Shown here: one piece after another, positions 8,654-16,387 of the stretch
How positions within the stretch are numbered: position 1 is the first letter of the stretch
Layout: every line of letters starts with the position of its first letter
Virus record (IMG/VR): IMGVR_UViG_2711768071_000023
Source of the DNA: a virus
Taxonomy: Duplodnaviria > Heunggongvirae > Uroviricota > Caudoviricetes
Reading direction: 5' to 3' (one strand)
Length of the DNA: 16,387 bases
Notes under the pieces: generated by a model
Databases searched by the model: none
What the model was told of the DNA's origin: nothing
The model's input: only the letters and a program-made list of their open reading frames with translations
Made by a program: the position numbers and the translations under genes

Positions 8654-8902
8654 TTATTGTTTCACTGGCTCCCGCATTCTGCGTCTTATTTTCCACAAAT
8701 ATTCGATCATCGCTTCCACCTGCTCACGGTTGGTTGCGAAAATTTCCCCGGTCAGTGAGCTACGCAGAAAATCATGATGATCCACAAAAAATAACGCATC
8801 GGAAGAAAGCAACCGACGATATTTTTTTGCTGTCGTGGTTTCCAGATCATCAAAACCATGAAGCTTTTTATGTTGCTGAACTTCTTCAAATGTCACTGGC
8901 AT
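8654..8902 (-). CDS. Hypothetical protein (82 aa)
   Basis: ATG at 8902 with strong SD AAGGGGGAT. Overlaps the stop of the ProQ/FinO-like gene by 10 nt. No family recognised. Confidence 0.5.
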   Translation of the reverse strand: MPVTFEEVQQHKKLHGFDDLETTTAKKYRRLLSSDALFFVDHHDFLRSSLTGEIFATNREQVEAMIEYLWKIRRRMREPVKQ

Positions 8903-9423
8903 GTATCCCCCTTTGCTGCCCGGCGCTGGCGCTTGTGCTTCTCATTCAGCACCATCAGCCGTGTTTCTGCCTCCTGCTGTTCCTGTGGTGTCACTTCCCC
9001 ACATGGCTGGCCTTTCAGATCGTAACGTGCGCCACCAGCTATCAGGGCGCGGTAATAGCGCGGAGACTGCGCATAGGATGCCAGCGTCGCACGTAATACC
9101 CCCGGCCCGAATGCCAGCCCCCTGACGGCGATATCCTGCATCAGGTCGTCGAATATCCCCACCTTAAGCGGCTTCGGTGCTTTATGGCTGAATAAGTCAG
9201 GCCACATCTCAGTGAGGCGGTTAACGCGTCGGCGGTTTTTGCGCTGCCTTTTGGTCATATGCTGCCACGGTGTCGCCCCTGTGGGCTTCTGCTGTGCGTT
9301 CTGATTGCCGGGTATCACTTTATGCGCCGATGTGGTTTTATCCTGCTCTTGCGCCGCCTGCGTCGTTTTCTGCGGCGTGCCGTAAATGCCTTTCGGCTTC
9401 CGGTTAATGGTCAGCGTTGTCAT
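8893..9423 (-). CDS. ProQ/FinO-domain RNA-binding protein (176 aa)
   Basis: C-terminal two-thirds aligns by eye with the ProQ N-terminal FinO-like domain (PLKVGIFDDL ... LRATLASYAQSPRYYRALIAGGARYDLKGQPCGEVT vs ProQ PLKIGIFQDL ... [35 protein letters not shown]). SD GGGGAAGG precedes the ATG at 9423. Confidence 0.8.
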   Translation of the reverse strand: MTTLTINRKPKGIYGTPQKTTQAAQEQDKTTSAHKVIPGNQNAQQKPTGATPWQHMTKRQRKNRRRVNRLTEMWPDLFSHKAPKPLKVGIFDDLMQDIAVRGLAFGPGVLRATLASYAQSPRYYRALIAGGARYDLKGQPCGEVTPQEQQEAETRLMVLNEKHKRQRRAAKGDTCQ

Positions 9424-10414: not shown

Positions 10415-12229
10415 TTAATTTTTGCTGTCGTCATTTGTGACCGATGCACATGATGGCATACAGTCTTCTGAATCCTCTGTCAGTGTCACATTTGAACGCA
10501 AACCGTGCTTCGTTTTCCGTTTTATATACTCCCTGCCATATTCCGCCATTGCCCCCGGCATATCTTTACCGAAGCGCGTCAGTGTTACAGGTTTACCGAA
10601 TCCGTGTGCCCTCATATATGCCAGATAGGCGTGATAAAGATACCTGCGCGGACTGAACGGAATAATTTCGGCATTACCCACTAACAGACCATCACACATT
10701 ACCGACGACATGAGATAGCCACAGAAGTCCACCAGCGAATCGCCCTCGCGTTTTATCACCAGAGCTTCTTCTGATTTCTGCTGCTCATACAGCAGGCGTT
10801 TAGCTTCGTCCTGGTCAGAAAAACGAGTAAGCAGATGGCGAATCACAACCGCCAGCTCTCCTTCTATTTTTTCTGCCAGCATGGGGTCGCGCTCGTTCTC
10901 CGGTACAACCTCCGAAAAATTGAATATCACCCGACGACGTGAGATCCCCCCGCTGCGGTCACTGAATGACATGGCGTTATTGTTCACCGCCAGCACGACC
11001 GCCTGAATGCGTGTTGAGTAGGGGGCTTTATGCTTCGGGTCGATTGCCACCTTGTCACCGCCTGTAATGGCCTTAATTCCTGCGCCATCACCAGCGTAGC
11101 GGGTCATATCCGGCATGATAATCAGCGAAAAGCCAACCACTAACGCGCGTTCCCTTGCATCTTCCAGCGCCTTCATGCTTGCCGATACTGTGTTGGCCTT
11201 ACCCGCCAGCATAGTGCAAATCTCCGCCATCACGCTTTTACCACTTCCCCCTGGACCTGTTACCTCAATGAATAACTGCCAGTCGTACCGGTTCGCCAGC
11301 ACCATGAATAATGCAGCCAGCACGCGATCCGTCTTGCGGTCATTCTCTGCCACCGAGCAGCGTAACCACTTCCAGAAATTCGGCGCATGTGTTGCCAGCG
11401 TTTCCCCCTCTGCTGGTGGGCTGAAAGGTAATTCACTGGCAATTAACAACCAGTCGTTTTTGTTATGCTCCCGAAAATTACCTGTTCTGGTATCAAATAC
11501 CCCGTTACTGAATCCAATCAGGTTACGGGCTGTATTCCCCATTACAGGCAAACTTAACTTCATGGTATCGACCGCCGATTTAATGGCGTTCTGCGAATAG
11601 CTGATCTCCGCATCAATGAAAATCTGCGCCATAGCACGCTGTAACTCTTTATCCTGAATCGGCTCCCATACAACGCCGTTGTAATGGTGAACAGTGTCAG
11701 AGTCGGCATGAATCGCCAGTTCACCGCCATAATGTGCCAGGAGAACTTCGCCGCGCTGGCTTGCTCCCATCTGGTTAAGCGCCAGTGGTGCGGCGCTGTC
11801 TTCTGTTTTTTTCTTAACAGGAAGCTGAATCACCAGACCATCAGAAAGATTCTGGCGCTCACGGGCCAGATATTCGCGCCAGTTCTGCACCTCCTGACCG
11901 TGCATACCCTCAGGATAAAAATTTGCATCCTGTACGCCTGCCGCCGCCAGCTTCTGACCAATCGCCTTTATCATTACTGGCGCAAGATATCCGGCCCTGA
12001 ATATGCGCACGGATTTTCTGCCTTCCGGCACAATTTGCAGCTTATCCAGTTCGGATAACTGCTGCTCCCCAAGCCACACAGGAGGCTCATTATCTCCGGC
12101 CATACGCGCGTCATGTTCCTGCCATTGTTTTGCGTGTGACCAGGCATCACTACCCGCAAAAATAATGACTTCTGTTTCTTTGTGTTTTATGCCGCGTGAC
12201 TGCTGTTTTACGTTCGGTGCCAGTTTCAT
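10415..12229 (-). CDS. Replication initiator primase-helicase, P4-alpha/D5-like (604 aa)
   Basis: Walker A motif GPGGSGKS and downstream helicase-like region in the C-terminal half. Strong SD AGGGGGT. Position next to the iteron origin matches a pri-rep gene. Confidence 0.85.
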   Translation of the reverse strand: MKLAPNVKQQSRGIKHKETEVIIFAGSDAWSHAKQWQEHDARMAGDNEPPVWLGEQQLSELDKLQIVPEGRKSVRIFRAGYLAPVMIKAIGQKLAAAGVQDANFYPEGMHGQEVQNWREYLARERQNLSDGLVIQLPVKKKTEDSAAPLALNQMGASQRGEVLLAHYGGELAIHADSDTVHHYNGVVWEPIQDKELQRAMAQIFIDAEISYSQNAIKSAVDTMKLSLPVMGNTARNLIGFSNGVFDTRTGNFREHNKNDWLLIASELPFSPPAEGETLATHAPNFWKWLRCSVAENDRKTDRVLAALFMVLANRYDWQLFIEVTGPGGSGKSVMAEICTMLAGKANTVSASMKALEDARERALVVGFSLIIMPDMTRYAGDGAGIKAITGGDKVAIDPKHKAPYSTRIQAVVLAVNNNAMSFSDRSGGISRRRVIFNFSEVVPENERDPMLAEKIEGELAVVIRHLLTRFSDQDEAKRLLYEQQKSEEALVIKREGDSLVDFCGYLMSSVMCDGLLVGNAEIIPFSPRRYLYHAYLAYMRAHGFGKPVTLTRFGKDMPGAMAEYGREYIKRKTKHGLRSNVTLTEDSEDCMPSCASVTNDDSKN

Positions 12230-12519: not shown

Positions 12520-12738
12520 TTACTCCAGAGGCAGCTTTTTAGCGGCGAGCTCAATATCAGATGTCAGAGAAACCTGTGTATTTGCCAGGTCTAACAACAA
12601 AGAAATAAGAATTTCTTCTCTGCTATCGGATTTATCGGTGCTAAGGCTGTTCATCCACATATTGACGACTTCCCTGATTTTTTTCGCAGAGTGCAGGGCT
12701 TCAAATGCCAGGTCTTCAATATCATGTTTATTTCGCAT
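12520..12738 (-). CDS. Hypothetical small acidic protein (72 aa)
   Basis: Internal ATG at 12738 with SD GGGGG. Overlaps the upstream gene stop by 11 nt. Confidence 0.45.
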   Translation of the reverse strand: MRNKHDIEDLAFEALHSAKKIREVVNMWMNSLSTDKSDSREEILISLLLDLANTQVSLTSDIELAAKKLPLE

Positions 12739-12940
12739 AATCGCCCCCGCGTAGCTGGTCTGCACTAACACCCGATTTAGTGAGCATTTCAGAAAATCCC
12801 GCAAGAGTGCTGATAAATTCGTTTTCCATTAAACGGCACTGACATTTAACCCGGCCTTTTTCCAGATACACCAGTACGCGCCCCGTATAATCTGACGGCA
12901 CATTCAGCACTACAGGTAAGTGCGATTCATGATTATGCAT
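12728..12940 (-). CDS. Small protein, paralog B of a tandem pair (70 aa)
   Basis: SD AGGGGGTGA. Shares a motif with the adjacent 69-aa protein (TGRVLVYLEKGRVKC vs TGQLLVNVDKGRVVC). Confidence 0.55.
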   Translation of the reverse strand: MHNHESHLPVVLNVPSDYTGRVLVYLEKGRVKCQCRLMENEFISTLAGFSEMLTKSGVSADQLRGGDYAK

Positions 12941-13142
12941 GTCTCACCCCCTGAATATTCGCATTAATCATTCCGGCACGTTCTGCGAGTTCCTGTAATG
13001 ATTCCCTTGTTGCGACAATGGCTTCATCTGGCAGGTGGTAATTACACACCACGCGACCTTTATCCACATTGACCAGTAGCTGCCCGGTAAATTTCTCACG
13101 AAACTGAACGCGGTTAAGGTCGGTAAGTGACAGGTTAATCAT
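12933..13142 (-). CDS. Small protein, paralog A of a tandem pair (69 aa)
   Basis: SD AGGGGG. Paralogous to 12728-12940. 8-nt overlaps on both sides. Confidence 0.55.
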   Translation of the reverse strand: MINLSLTDLNRVQFREKFTGQLLVNVDKGRVVCNYHLPDEAIVATRESLQELAERAGMINANIQGVRHA

Positions 13143-13338
13143 GGTGTTCCCCCTGGCGAATACGGGCAGCGAATACCATCACGCAGCCATCAGGAGATTG
13201 CTGACGCGCTTCCTGTTCGCTGGTGGCCTCAATGGTAATCACGCGCGGTTGTGCCGTGCTCAGGGCGATAAAACGCCAGATGTATTTATTCAGGTTGTGC
13301 GAGTCCCGCCCTTGCGGGTGTGTGGTATGATTTCTCAT
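13135..13338 (-). CDS. Icd-like small protein (67 aa), first gene of the leftward early operon
   Basis: In-frame ATG at 13338 with SD GAGGT inside the 473-codon track ORF. Translation MRNHTTHPQGR...VITIEATSEQEARQQSPDGCVMVFAARIRQ resembles the Icd-like proteins of P4-type prophages as I recall them. Family assignment is from memory only. Confidence 0.5.
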   Translation of the reverse strand: MRNHTTHPQGRDSHNLNKYIWRFIALSTAQPRVITIEATSEQEARQQSPDGCVMVFAARIRQGEHHD

Positions 13339-13446
13339 AGCTACCTCGATACTCTCGTTATCGTTGGTGGTTAGAAGCCCCGTTACTGCTCCAACAGTGC
13401 GGGGCTTCGTCGTTTCAATTGCTGAATTGCATGTATCAGCACTTGT

Positions 13447-13500
13447 GGTATTCACATTACATTTAGGTGAATACCATTTCAAGTCTTTTTTGGTATTCAC
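13447..13500. promoter_or_regulatory. Operator-like repeats in the divergent control region
   Basis: Perfect inverted repeat GGTATTCAC-N11-GTGAATACC (13447-13475) plus a third direct copy TGGTATTCAC (13491-13500). Lies between the minus-strand Icd-like start (13338) and the plus-strand regulator start (13544). Confidence 0.5.
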
Positions 13501-13543
13501 TTTTGTATTACACTGCATCCCGTTATTAATGGGAGGTGCAAAC

Positions 13544-13849
13544 ATGTCCAGGAGTTCTGTTAACAATAAGTCACAGCAACTGAATGCCAGATTTCCACAT
13601 GAAGTAGTGAGTGGCATTGAGGCATCCCTACAGCCAGGGGAAACTAAAGCGAATTTTATAGTTACGGCTGTACGCGGTGAGATCGCCCGGCGCCAGGCAG
13701 AAGGAAGTGGAGAAAATCCCCTGGTTTCTTCGCTCGATGCACTGGCGCAGGTGGAAAAACTCGGAATCAAAGCCGCCGAGGAGATCGGGCAGCTCGTCAC
13801 TGTCGCACGTGAAGAACTCCAGCGCCGCAAGACCAAAGAACCAGAGTAA
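13544..13849 (+). CDS. Ribbon-helix-helix (Arc/MetJ-type) DNA-binding protein, candidate island repressor (101 aa)
   Basis: ATG at 13544 preceded by GGGAGGTG at 5-nt spacing. N-terminus QQLNARFPHEVVSGIEAS...ANFIVTAVRGEIARRQ fits the RHH beta-strand plus two-helix pattern. One of only two credible plus-strand genes inside the element. Confidence 0.6.
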   Translation: MSRSSVNNKSQQLNARFPHEVVSGIEASLQPGETKANFIVTAVRGEIARRQAEGSGENPLVSSLDALAQVEKLGIKAAEEIGQLVTVAREELQRRKTKEPE

Positions 13850-13906
13850 TCACCATCAGCGCCGTGGTGTAAGGTATTACGGCGCATTGCTATGCAGGAC
13901 AACACA

Positions 13907-14080
13907 ATGACCGATAAAGAATTGACCAAAACATTATCACCGGCACGGAAAAGACGGCGCAGAAAGATAGAGCATGAATCAGAAAGATTCGCGCCATGTG
14001 CTTTTGCCCTTGAGCAATTCCTTAAAGAGTACAGGGAAAAGCGCTCATTGCAGGTATGGCAACGAACTGAACCAGACTGA
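13907..14080 (+). CDS. Possible small basic protein (57 aa)
   Basis: ATG at 13907 (MTDKELTK...) in the same transcriptional direction as the RHH gene. Weak SD. No family recognised. Confidence 0.3.
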   Translation: MTDKELTKTLSPARKRRRRKIEHESERFAPCAFALEQFLKEYREKRSLQVWQRTEPD

Positions 14081-14256
14081 TTGCATTGCCCACCAGCCGC
14101 AAATGTGGCATTGTTGGCAATGCTCATGCGTTGGGGATAACGTGTAGCTTGTGTCGAGGGGCCACCGTAGCGGGTGGCCTTTGTTTTGCCCGTTATTCGG
14201 CAATTGTGGCGCTTCTCCACATGGTTGATATAATCCCACTGCTCAGATTCATTTTT

Positions 14257-14556
14257 TGCGCAGTAGGTTAATTGTTCACAAAGGCGCTCCGGCAACGGGG
14301 CGCTTTTTGTTTTTATTAGTTTGTAGAAACCTGACTCAGAGATAATGCTCATATTCTGATTGCCGTCAGGGGTGTAAGTTAAATTTACTCCCTTTTTATC
14401 ATCAAACATCTGCAACGCTCTGGCGTTAACAATATTGGTTTCACTCCCGCCAGTAAGGCCGGAAATAACCGGAATAATTTCGGCAAAATTTTGCAGATTC
14501 TGTTTTTCAGGACGAACGAAGCCCCGCCCTTGTTCGGGAGAATATCCAGTATTCAT
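14257..14556 (-). other. Possible coding segment: N-terminal ~100 codons of the 473-codon ORF, 3' end unresolved
   Basis: ATG at 14556, 52 bp downstream of alpA. Residues ~60-90 (TPDGNQNMSIISESGFYKLIKTKSAP) resemble the core of Bro-N-type domains. The frame has no stop until 13135 and runs antisense through the RHH gene and the 14284-14314 terminator. Confidence 0.3.
14284..14314 (+). terminator. Intrinsic terminator on the plus strand
   Basis: Stem GCGCTCCG / CGGGGCGC (14284-14291, 14296-14303; 7 Watson-Crick pairs plus 1 GU) with GCAA tetraloop, followed by TTTTTGTTTTT (14304-14314). Confidence 0.6.
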
Positions 14557-14608
14557 GGTTAGATCTCTGTATTAGTGGATGGGTGGCGGCTGTGTGCCGC
14601 CAGCCTGA

Positions 14609-14797
14609 TTAGTGAACTGCCTCGCAGCTGTCCTTCCATGCCAGAACTTCGGATAAAGACCAGCCAACGGAACGACCGCCCAGCTTACGCCGTGATGGGA
14701 ATTGTCCGGCTTTTTCCAGGCGGTACCGACATGAGCGGCTCAGGCCTGTAAGTTGCTGACATTCTTTTTCACGTATAAAGCGATCTGTGCTTAACAC
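14609..14797 (-). CDS. alpA: AlpA-family transcriptional regulator (62 aa), GTG start
   Basis: Translation MLSTDRFIREKECQQLTGLSRSCRYRLEKAGQFPSRRKLGGRSVGWSLSEVLAWK matches the AlpA family HTH pattern. GTG start at 14797 preceded by AAGGGGGAA. Confidence 0.8.
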   Translation of the reverse strand: MLSTDRFIREKECQQLTGLSRSCRYRLEKAGQFPSRRKLGGRSVGWSLSEVLAWKDSCEAVH

Positions 14798-15070
14798 AAT
14801 TCCCCCTTTGTTGTTTCTTAAAGAGTCATTGGGTGGATTATTGGGTTGTGTCGGATTGTGTCAGGGTGTTTGTGGAATGGCAAACACTGGCGGCGGTCGT
14901 TTTACAGAAGCAGGGGGAATGAGAATAAAAACTCTTTTAATTCATTATGATGCAAAGGCATAAAATTTTACTTTTACGCCTTTTTTACATATTTTTAAGA
15001 GTGATTCGCCAGTGTATAAAAAAACAGTACACCTATAAAAATCAAATGGTTATTACGATGGCTGATTTTT

Positions 15071-15157: not shown

Positions 15158-16387
15158 TTATATTTCTCTGGCTATTGGCAATGTGGTTACGTTTTCATGT
15201 GTTCCCGCCAGTATCCCTAACCGCTCCGTCCACATATCCAGCGCGTCACGTTTCGCATCCAGATAACGGGAATGGTTATAGACTCGTTGCATCCCTGGCA
15301 TCTGATGACCTGTAAGCTGCTCCACGACGTGAGGATCCACGCCTAAATCGTTCAGCATCGTTGTAAAGGTGCGCCGGATGTCATGCAGTGACCAGTGAGG
15401 GTGTTTTAGCCTCCTGTGCGCTAATCTGCCGTACTGCGACACGCTTGTTTCCTGTTTCACTTCCCCCAGCAATAAGCCCGTGTGCCTGTTCTGCTCCACC
15501 AGCTGCGTGACGAACGGCAGTATTGCTTCCGGTATGGGCCGGAATATTGCCACCTTCGTTTTGCTGTGTTCTTTCGGCACGGTCCAGAGCATTTCGGTAA
15601 AATCCCACTCGCTGATCTCCGATAACCTCAGTTCTACCGTCCGGCATCCGAAAACAATCAGGAGGCGGATTAGTGCGACGTAGTAAGGGGAAAATATTTT
15701 TTTGTCCAGTGCCTGCAATAATTCGCCAAGTTCTTTGGTGCTTAAGACACGCTCGCTTATATCCGGTTTTTTCCCAACGTCCGCCACACTCATATCATCA
15801 AGAACGTTGCTGATTGCATAGCGCCGCCTCCGGCAGAACTTAAGCGCCTGTTTGCACGTCTGTAGCAAGAATCCGGCAGTAACAGGCGTTCGCTTTGCCA
15901 CCTGGTCAAAACAGGCCAGCCAGTGCCGTAGCTCGCATTTATCCAGCGGCATAGCACCAATGTGCTGTATTACGTGATTATTAAGGCGCTTTTTCAGGGC
16001 GGCATAATCCACGCGGTTTTCCTTTACGTAAGACTCAAGCCAGTAGGTAAGCGCATCGCCAACCGTTACGGGCTTTAACGCTTTCTGTACGGTGTAATTC
16101 ATCTCATGACGTGGATTTTTCCCCTCAGCAAGCCAAGCGCGACACTGTGCCGCTTTTTCCCTGGCAGCTTTCAGACTCAGATCAGGATAATTTCCCAGCT
16201 TAATCCGTTCCGGTCGTGCTCCCCTTCCCGTTCCGGCCCTGTAGGTGAAATACCAGGTTAAAAGGCCGCTGGTTGAATGCCTGACGCTCAGGTTTCCACC
16301 GTCATTAAGAAAGGCTGTTTTTTGGGCGGGTGTGCCGTTGATTTTCCTCAGCTGTGTATCGCTCAGTTTGTTAAGTGCTCTGCTCAT
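15158..16387 (-). CDS. int: Tyrosine integrase, P4 type (409 aa)
   Basis: ATG is the last three bases of the window; stop TAA at 15158-15160. N-terminal arm-binding-type region (LSDTQLRK..., GLLTWYFTYRAG...) and C-terminal catalytic region with HDIRRT and a tyrosine near the C-terminus. Transcribed inward, so its att site lies beyond 16387. Confidence 0.9.
   Translation of the reverse strand: MSRALNKLSDTQLRKINGTPAQKTAFLNDGGNLSVRHSTSGLLTWYFTYRAGTGRGARPERIKLGNYPDLSLKAAREKAAQCRAWLAEGKNPRHEMNYTVQKALKPVTVGDALTYWLESYVKENRVDYAALKKRLNNHVIQHIGAMPLDKCELRHWLACFDQVAKRTPVTAGFLLQTCKQALKFCRRRRYAISNVLDDMSVADVGKKPDISERVLSTKELGELLQALDKKIFSPYYVALIRLLIVFGCRTVELRLSEISEWDFTEMLWTVPKEHSKTKVAIFRPIPEAILPFVTQLVEQNRHTGLLLGEVKQETSVSQYGRLAHRRLKHPHWSLHDIRRTFTTMLNDLGVDPHVVEQLTGHQMPGMQRVYNHSRYLDAKRDALDMWTERLGILAGTHENVTTLPIAREI

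Follow-up and report, generated by a model that had tools for sequence, protein, structure and literature searches.

This study concerns the interval 13339-13543 of the virus record IMGVR_UViG_2711768071_000023, a stretch of 16,387 nucleotides referred to here as the window, in which it forms the gap between a leftward icd-like gene (13135-13338, minus strand) and a rightward gene (13544-13849, plus strand) for a 101-residue protein of the YlcI/YnfO family. Apart from its first ORF, phoQ, the window is an integrated island of about 15 kb, a phage-inducible chromosomal island (PICI), and it is probable that the interval is an immunity switch of this island, laid out on the plan of the left operon of satellite P4 and combining a protein repressor, an antisense RNA and AlpA-driven read-through. 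Judged by the comparisons below, the 101-residue protein most likely shuts the promoter of the island replication genes, and the region represents P4-type satellite immunity in a variant form, in which a protein has taken over from an RNA. Islands of the E. coli PICI kind had been regarded as having no repressor of their own, and in the literature searched no published description of the module was found (including any of a ribbon-helix-helix (RHH) protein with AlpA or in a PICI), nor any functional study of YlcI, YnfO or DUF3950. About 95 related loci were compared in all: 10 from species-representative genomes (Enterobacter, Xenorhabdus, Photorhabdus, Pantoea, Phytobacter, Lelliottia and a record labelled Martelella) and 80 further loci from IMG/VR, together with the records of CFT073, O157:H7 and strain WP8-S18.

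Probable operator half-sites, predicted promoters and the YlcI/YnfO-family protein

The 10-mer TGGTATTCAC occurs exactly at 13446-13455 (plus strand), 13467-13476 (minus) and 13491-13500 (plus), and no other exact copy is present on either strand of the 16.4-kb window. The first two copies form an inverted repeat, the 10-bp arms TGGTATTCAC (13446-13455) and GTGAATACCA (13467-13476) being 100% complementary with 11 bp between them. An initial annotation, made by a model from the letters of the DNA, had described a perfect inverted repeat with an 11-nucleotide spacer and a third, direct half-site at 13491-13500; both are present, the third as a perfect 10-mer, although the arms of the repeat measure 10 bp rather than the 9 bp it gave them (13446-13476). 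Allowing up to two mismatches, 26 half-site matches were counted against 12.5 expected, a number that none of 200 shuffles reached. A consensus promoter scan found no promoter in the interval, and a weighted scan together with comparison across relatives was used instead. The elements so placed, with the gene that they precede, are as follows.

13446-13455, plus strand: half-site O1, TGGTATTCAC, covering -8 to +2 of the leftward promoter P_L
13467-13476, minus strand: half-site O2, in the P_L spacer and adjoining the -35
13491-13500, plus strand: half-site O3, a perfect 10-mer in the spacer of the rightward promoter P_R
13513-13522, minus strand: half-site O4, degenerate (6 of 10 positions), where relatives have a good inverted copy
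13477-13482, minus strand: predicted P_L -35, TTGAAA, from the weighted scan (TTGACx in most relatives)
13454-13459, minus strand: predicted P_L -10, TAATGT, with a predicted start near 13447
13486-13491, plus strand: predicted P_R -35, weak and T-rich
13509-13514, plus strand: predicted P_R -10, TACACT (TATAAT, TATACT or TATATT in relatives)
13544-13849, plus strand: gene of the 101-residue YlcI/YnfO-family protein (NF041551; phrog_6522), with the Shine-Dalgarno sequence GGGAGG at 13531-13536

P_L is the top minus-strand promoter of the region in the weighted scan, with a 17-nucleotide spacer, and the best leftward promoter lies at a constant distance from the ylcI start in all nine of the specificity classes described below. 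In these relatives the -35 is TTGACx in six of the nine classes, the spacer is 16-18 nucleotides (17 in six) and the -10 is TAnnnT, or TTAAAT or TTTAAT in two classes; the rightward -10 of P_R falls at position -35/-36 in most classes. P_L and P_R are predicted to be back-to-back sigma-70 promoters, 4 bp apart. O1 and O2, 21 bp from centre to centre, bracket the P_L -10, and O3 and the degenerate O4 take the mirror positions at P_R, so placed that the layout of the half-sites on these predicted promoters is a repression geometry at both. Two one-mismatch copies within the icd-like gene, at 13169-13178 (minus strand; TGGTATTCGC) and 13233-13242 (plus strand; TGGTAATCAC), could be auxiliary sites or due to chance.

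The identity of the protein that would occupy these sites was addressed by covariation across 91 related loci. Among homologues of the 101-residue protein the helices are conserved and the residues just before an invariant R16-x-P18 vary, and the half-site differs by class, tracking the residues that precede R-x-P. At least nine specificity classes can be distinguished in this way, each given here by these residues and its half-site.

QQLNAR: GGTATTCA
QQINAR: GGGATTCA
QSLTAR: GTGTAAGA
KQISIR: GTGATTCA
QLTTVR: GTGTTTCA
QIKNVR and QVKNVR: GTGTGCAT and GTGTGTAT, respectively
QMTTIR: GAGATACA
ALKAR (EcCICFT073): GTGTGGCCCAC
TVAAR (strain WP8-S18): the half-site is the palindrome GTGTTGAACAC

Relative to the ATG the sites are close to positions -97, -76, -52 and -31 in most classes, O2 being direct and not inverted in some, and a region holds about 3-5 copies of the site of its own class and about none of those of unrelated classes. 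The same switch is seen in EcCICFT073 (locus L096; CFT073, NC_004431.1, 1380242-1381052), there with a 59-residue repressor and two direct repeats of GTGTGGCCCAC.

Mosaic loci separate the candidate binders from one another. In one (L030) icd is 94%, orf62 100% and the C-terminal part of YlcI 96% identical to the window, the N-terminal part of YlcI is only 52% identical and the operator differs; in another (L032) AlpA is 100% identical to that of the window and the operator differs. Across the mosaic table the operator class covaries with the N-terminal domain of the 101-residue protein only, and therefore this protein is taken as the binder, a reading for which the comparative evidence is strong. 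AlpA, Icd and orf62 were each considered as the operator-binding factor and rejected, the operator class being independent of each. The plus-strand protein was the candidate named in the initial annotation and is indeed the best one, at least nine classes pairing their own N-terminal residues with their own half-site. The module thereby offers a strong repressor candidate whose operator is defined and whose specificity classes, nine or more in number, are exchangeable; these classes may predict immunity or incompatibility groups among islands and are a source of orthogonal repressor-operator pairs.

Membership of the YlcI/YnfO family is clear from the NF041551 model (score 60.8 bits, cut-off 30; E 9.6e-17; residues 9-50), and this small, uncharacterised family (DUF3950), for which 75 representatives were found among 1.8 billion, gains a testable function. 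The N-terminal 50 or so residues are common to YlcI/YnfO of the E. coli K-12 prophages DLP12/Qin and to the satellite proteins (NF041551), whereas in many of the latter a conserved C-terminal helix follows, and their genes have a constant setting of promoters and operators. The protein is divided into a probable RHH DNA-binding domain of about residues 1-55 and a long C-terminal helix, 59-98, and the AlphaFold2 (AF2) monomer has helices at 19-28 and 35-54 and, with confidence, the long helix at 59-98. The fold is probably RHH, as suggested by a CopG/Arc pattern of polar alternating strand residues, R-x-P-x-E-V, helix A, a G-E-S/T turn and helix B, by the Arc-like motif Q-x-N-x-R-x-P-x-E-V and by hhalign alignments to Arc (P 0.0013) and Mnt (P 0.023). 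It is a trait of RHH proteins that strand residues read the bases of the site, and the comparison agrees with this, the residues before R16-x-P18 being those that covary with the half-site. Searches of PDB with full-length and domain profiles returned marginal hits only (the helix-hairpin-helix (HhH) of Hef, E 0.023; Arc, E 0.6, one of three PDB hits for the domain profile). Of 37 members, 25 matched PSK_trans_fac, of the RHH clan, below threshold (17.5 bits, cut-off 28.3), and among distant domain-only relatives single members matched RHH_1, TacA1 and HicB-like, and four matched CB_ParB_C, all below threshold.

About 40 of the 75 representatives are short (39-70 residues, most 55-65) and consist of the domain only, and EcCICFT073 and WP8-S18 carry 59-residue versions without the C-terminal domain; the C-terminal helix is therefore dispensable for basic function. 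Conservation of residues 55-101 (13706-13849) between operator classes is 89-96% among the E. coli-type islands; in other genera it is 60-76%. The segment includes an invariant Gly74 in a motif resembling the HhH of Hef (E 0.023). Oligomerisation, inducer sensing and a constraint from the overlapping frame are possible explanations of this domain.

RNA structure at the icd leader

The initial annotation also noted a hairpin at 13374-13408, with a 9-bp stem and a 17-nucleotide loop. The hairpin is present, but the loop is not open: it holds an inner 4-bp stem, ACTG/CAGT, with a 6-nucleotide loop; and the hairpin, no mere accessory of the operator, is conserved as a plus-strand RNA structure. 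The features concerned are the following.

13374-13408, plus strand: terminator-like stem-loop, arms GAAGCCCCG and CGGGGCTTC, with a T-rich plus-strand tail to about 13419
13339 to about 13419, plus strand: putative cis-antisense RNA of about 80 nucleotides over the icd Shine-Dalgarno sequence and leader (-36.2 kcal/mol, z -5.5)
13326-13331, plus strand: candidate -10 of the antisense RNA, TATGAT preceded by TG (position weight matrix score 6.6), with a putative +1 at A13339
13416-13445, minus strand: inverted repeat with imperfect arms, CAATTGCTGA/TCAGCACTTG, which would fold into a stem-loop where the predicted P_L transcript begins

In 20 of 22 hairpin variants stability favours the plus-strand RNA; the mean energy is -23.7 kcal/mol for that strand and -17.5 kcal/mol for the other, and 53 G.U pairs on the plus strand compare with 8 on the minus strand. 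In an alignment of 26 sequences the terminator stem is 98.2% paired on the plus strand, with 40 G.U cells, and 86.4% paired on the minus strand, with none, and a second helix, in which UGGU pairs with the complement of the icd start region, has 98% pairing on the plus strand against 67% on the minus strand. The consensus structure is 96% paired and its covariation score was reached by none of 500 shuffles. Conservation of the hairpin as a plus-strand RNA structure is thus well supported by these comparisons. The hairpin, which stands behind a 5' stem that encloses a small stem-loop and ahead of a U-rich tail, is probably the terminator of an antisense RNA. A putative RNA of about 80 nucleotides that covers the icd Shine-Dalgarno sequence is the simplest reading. 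At its other end, almost every one of 44 variants, which represent three icd types, has TAnnnT (TATGAT, TATAAT, TATGCT or TAGACT) at a distance of 4 or 10 nucleotides to the left of the icd start, a count that sets aside a downstream overlapping hexamer picked by the script in 7 rows, and the last T of the hexamer and the A 8 nucleotides downstream (13339) are invariant in the alignment. The promoter is less well supported than the strand because it overlaps conserved icd codons.

It is possible, but unlikely, that the hairpin and the nearby stems act instead in the minus-strand icd leader, as a stabiliser, an attenuator or an RNA of the P4 CI/seqA kind, and that there is no antisense RNA. Both strands fold equally well in the window itself, the hairpin would lie at +39 to +73 of the predicted P_L transcript, and in P4 and some PICIs this zone has immunity RNAs of the C4/isrK type, which act from the sense strand (PMC10111431). 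Nevertheless, the 40-53 plus-strand G.U pairs across the 22-26 variants become A.C mismatches on the minus strand, where pairing falls to 86% from 98%, and the T-rich tail is on the plus strand. In addition, no Rfam family reached its gathering score in the window, and neither C4 nor isrK (RF01695, RF01394) nor any other relevant family was matched at E<=10 in 13100-14700.

The repeat at 13416-13445 has equivalents in the other classes, which differ in sequence and keep the symmetry (for example ACCTTGA-N4-TCAAGGT), and may either stabilise the 5' end as a stem-loop or be bound by a protein as a second site. Among the products of the island is a protein of the ProQ/FinO family (8893-9423, minus strand; PF04352, E 1e-23). 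RNA chaperones of the ProQ/FinO type bind the terminator hairpins of antisense RNAs, the FinO-FinP pair being the paradigm, and the island protein may be a partner of the putative antisense RNA.

The immI region of phage P22 combines the RHH repressors Mnt and Arc, the Pant/Pmnt operators and the antisense RNA sar. It has in common with the proposed switch of the island a small RHH-type repressor, symmetric sites over two divergent promoters and a short antisense RNA that opposes the ribosome-binding site of the first gene; Mnt too has an extra C-terminal helix, which suggests a higher-order assembly. Sequence similarity is marginal, however, the half-sites are 21 bp apart in the island against about 11 in P22, the operon of the island is one of satellite replication, and the Rfam sar model had no match in the window (E 4.3, on the other strand).

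AlpA control, the P4 left operon and the long antisense frame

AlpA is required for induction of EcCICFT073 and EcCIEDL933 and is sufficient if overexpressed; helper phages switch alpA on, and mutation of alpA abolishes induction (PMC6092414; 10.1101/2022.09.08.507074; 10.1101/2025.02.11.637232). The module described here is carried by EcCICFT073 itself and by the O157:H7 capsid-forming island, which is probably EcCIEDL933. Because AlpA is both needed and sufficient in islands that carry the module, the repressor cannot be the sole control. The initial annotation had proposed a master repressor analogous to Stl in place of AlpA control, and this does not hold, given that both islands are AlpA-dependent; its proposal that the leftward replication operon is repressed fits the geometry at P_L, but the logic is not that of Stl and the left operon of P4 is the closer model.

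The strongest form of the Stl analogy, in which the RHH protein is the sole silencer and is removed by a helper-phage protein independently of AlpA, is therefore improbable. In its favour are the divergent arrangement of repressor and replication genes with operators over P_L, which in Stl/Rpr systems likewise lie between the repressor gene and the satellite replication operon (PMC6092414), and a conserved C-terminal domain that could receive an anti-repressor. It is contradicted by the islands with the module, which lose induction on alpA mutation and replicate on alpA overexpression alone, and by the EcCICFT073 and WP8-S18 versions of 59 residues, which have no C-terminal domain. Furthermore, Stl and Rpr, of SaPIs and Gram-positive PICIs, are larger helix-turn-helix (HTH) proteins removed by helper proteins, whereas the island protein, of about 100 residues (59 in some), is probably RHH and has no similarity to HTH repressors of the Stl or CI type, and the island requires AlpA in addition; no HTH domain was found in the 101-residue protein, which sets it apart from master repressors of the Stl/Rpr type.

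Comparison with P4 rests on the following minus-strand features.

14837-14864: candidate alpA promoter, CTGACA-16-AATAAT
14609-14797: alpA, a homologue of P4 vis (PF05930, E 3e-18; phrog_2790, likewise matched by P4 ORF88)
13135-14556: 473-codon eta-like open reading frame (ORF) that shares the phase of icd and runs antisense over orf62, the repressor gene, both promoters and the leader
13135-13338: icd/kil-like gene of 67 residues, the first of the leftward replication operon (NF033153 phage_ICD_like, E 9e-20; phrog_1743)

The Icd of the window and residues 85-132 of P4 ORF137 both belong to the Kil family (70.4 and 73.9 bits on NF033153, cut-off 25). P4 Kil is the C-terminal part of Eta and shares phrog_1743 with the window Icd, as P4 Vis and AlpA share phrog_2790. 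The passages on P4 in PMC10111431 describe eta as starting next to the alpA homologue and containing a constitutive internal promoter, as being fully translated only from an upstream activated promoter, with that translation preventing termination, and Kil/Icd as toxic in P4. The island and the P4 left operon thus have the same order of alpA/vis, a long ORF that adjoins the alpA homologue and whose terminal 65 or so residues are Kil/Icd, and a D5/P4-type primase, with a promoter inside the long ORF just upstream of kil/icd; the nested eta/kil arrangement, in which the long ORF starts upstream of an internal promoter and ends as kil, is found in the island. They differ in that P4 has the internal P_LE, the upstream activated P_LL and immunity by the CI RNA, whereas the island has no C4/CI or isrK RNA match and has instead a divergent protein-repressor gene and four half-sites embedded antisense in the eta-like ORF, as well as a probable RNA from the antisense strand; the ORF itself is 473 codons long against about 137 in P4. 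For Gram-negative PICIs the same paper describes a "Bro zone" with Bro-type genes and C4/isrK immunity RNAs, an antisense repressor gene being unmentioned (PMC10111431). The nested eta/kil genes tie PICIs mechanistically to P4, with a swap of protein for RNA as the immunity factor.

Read in the phase of the icd ATG, the minus strand has no stop for 411 codons upstream, up to 35 nucleotides below alpA, and the eta-like ORF starts at 14556, 53 nucleotides below the alpA stop; no strong minus-strand terminator was found between alpA and icd. Its N-terminal 100 or so residues are Bro/Ant-like and its C-terminal end is Icd. One could suppose that this frame is a passive shadow of the coding of ylcI and orf62 joined to a decayed Bro-type gene, without an independent role: it shares its third codon positions with ylcI, which makes it the frame most tolerant of openness, its translation in the middle is unlike a protein, and PGAP (the Prokaryotic Genome Annotation Pipeline) calls fragments or pseudogenes only. 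This has little probability for three reasons. First, over 51 distinct intergenic variants the in-phase frame has 50 stops against 312 and 254 in the other two, and the non-coding operator and leader stretch is free of stops in phase in 38 of the 51, against 1 and 0 in the other frames. An open frame of 215-819 codons crosses the operator in 49 of the 51, the next-best frame reaching 5-52 codons, and in out-of-phase variants the long frame ends 7-28 nucleotides before, or 10 nucleotides after, the icd ATG. Second, antisense-stop-creating contexts are avoided at the codon level inside ylcI: in 57 distinct ylcI genes the codon before His or Gln ends in T in 0 of 405 cases, against 19% elsewhere (Fisher p 1e-36), and there is one Tyr among 5767 residues of the products. 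Third, eta/kil of P4 is a homologous precedent that has been studied experimentally. As an example of selection for openness in a reading frame antisense to a gene, the eta-like frame is unusually clear. In EcCICFT073 the eta-like frame has 367 codons. PGAP never annotates the ORF whole, and its calls over 14240-14556 (minus strand) are inconsistent between L001, L092 and L094, consisting of a 161-residue Icd-like protein overlapping ylcI, a pseudogene with "missing C-terminus" and a fragment termed "Icd-like, incomplete".

The repeats, the conserved promoter geometry, the covariation of protein and operator, the strand on which the RNA structure is conserved, the long open frame and the homologies are observed; from them we infer protein binding, repression, a small RNA and read-through, which would together work as follows. 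P_L would fire leftward into icd/kil, the small ORFs, the DUF4222 gene, the primase and onward, and P_R rightward into the gene of the 101-residue protein and orf62. The protein, probably an RHH dimer with an extra C-terminal helix, would bind the 10-bp half-sites, its occupancy of O1 and O2 occluding RNA polymerase at P_L and that of O3 and the degenerate O4 doing the same at P_R as autoregulation. A second lock would be the plus-strand RNA of about 80 nucleotides, starting at the edge of the icd start codon and ending at the 13374-13408 hairpin; being the complement of the leader and Shine-Dalgarno sequence of icd, it would leave leaky P_L transcripts without toxic Kil/Icd output. By homology with P4, induction would begin with activation of the alpA promoter by a helper phage, and transcription from it would run leftward through the stop-free, translated eta-like ORF and in phase into icd. 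Such read-through transcripts would escape polarity and the antisense RNA and would displace or outrun the repressor, while convergent transcription would oppose repressor synthesis; by this analogy, AlpA-driven read-through probably bypasses the repressor.

A more far-reaching version raises the possibility that the repressor gene and orf62 are obligately antisense within the translated eta-like ORF and that both frames are selected as a bistable, head-on toggle of transcription and translation. Induction would then clear the operators, silence the repressor mRNA and bypass the antisense lock on Kil/Icd, and the ProQ/FinO protein might assist the RNA. This version is tentative and somewhat less likely to be right than wrong; if true, the toggle would be an interchangeable "immunity cassette" among PICIs of many Enterobacterales.

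The assignment of the repeats to another binder, be it AlpA, Icd/Kil, orf62 or the primase (as iterons), or of the RHH protein to a partition or antitoxin type, draws on weak hits to RHH antitoxin and centromere-binding families and on the toxicity of Kil/Icd in P4, but is very improbable, since the operator class is independent of AlpA, Icd, orf62 and the C-terminal part of YlcI, neither a ParA partner nor a co-directional toxin gene is present, and the sites sit exactly on promoter elements.

Several points weigh against the proposed switch. The RHH fold, for which the initial annotation looked to structure prediction, has helices 19-28 and 35-54 in the expected places, but residues 7-16 of the AF2 monomer form a low-confidence helix (pLDDT 52-62) and not a strand, although a monomer cannot form that strand; Foldseek found no match with E below 1 for the AF2 monomer in PDB, and the threshold of no curated RHH model was reached, so that membership of the RHH superfamily is not established by model matches. 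At the promoters, the P_R -35 is poor and autoregulation in the window may be weak because its own O4 is degenerate. The sequences used to assess the consensus RNA structure are those from whose plus strand it had been deduced, and the antisense promoter overlaps the codons of the icd H-T motif, where coding constraint may explain part of the conservation. The stop-avoidance statistics come from related, non-independent sequences, and the frame is broken in 2 of the 51 variants (L003 and L083). Finally, published induction needs AlpA only, and the share of the repressor in quiescence may be modest.

The island and its distribution

The island adjoins phoQ, which is ORF 1 of the window, and is a capsid-forming PICI, having int, alpA and a primase together with its own capsid, protease, portal, connector, HNH, TerS and TerL genes. 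Other features around the switch are as follows.

15158-16387, minus strand: int
14280-14307, plus strand: strong intrinsic terminator ending the ylcI-orf62 unit, a 12-bp stem with 7 G-C pairs followed by a T run
13892-14080, plus strand: orf62, for a small basic protein, in the same orientation as the repressor gene (phrog_21027; annotated by PGAP in relatives)

The exact island was present in no complete RefSeq E. coli genome, the best match having 92% coverage and 97.6% identity. Over 13149-14100 the identity is 99% with an EcCICFT073-like island, which occupies the same phoQ/roxA site, and 98.9% with the O157:H7 capsid-forming island, and 12900-14100 was matched in 1694 of 5426 complete E. 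coli genomes. Beyond E. coli the module occurs in Enterobacter, Yersinia, Xenorhabdus, Photorhabdus, Pantoea and others, and the loci compared come from at least eight genera. By tblastn the 101-residue protein had no match in 50,697 phage records, and the family is therefore satellite- or prophage-borne and not in sequenced phages; the Icd-like protein had one match in the same records, in a 16.5-kb element that is probably another island.

A search for a motif common to the alpA promoter and the switch region, as a possible AlpA site, gave nothing meaningful, and the switch region has no copy of the GACACAA repeat. Two direct repeats of GACACAA (CTGACACAATCCGACACAACC) are present in the alpA promoter region (14837-14900, minus strand), where they overlap the candidate -35 and are possible AlpA sites.

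The icd-like gene has the Shine-Dalgarno sequence GAGG 5 nucleotides before its ATG and is followed by small ORFs, a DUF4222 gene, the D5/P4-type primase (10415-12229, minus strand) and ssb. The two ORFs directly after icd (12728-13142, minus strand; 69 and 70 residues) both match phrog_340 and are therefore tandem paralogues, and the overlap of their start and stop codons with those of their neighbours suggests translational coupling along the operon.

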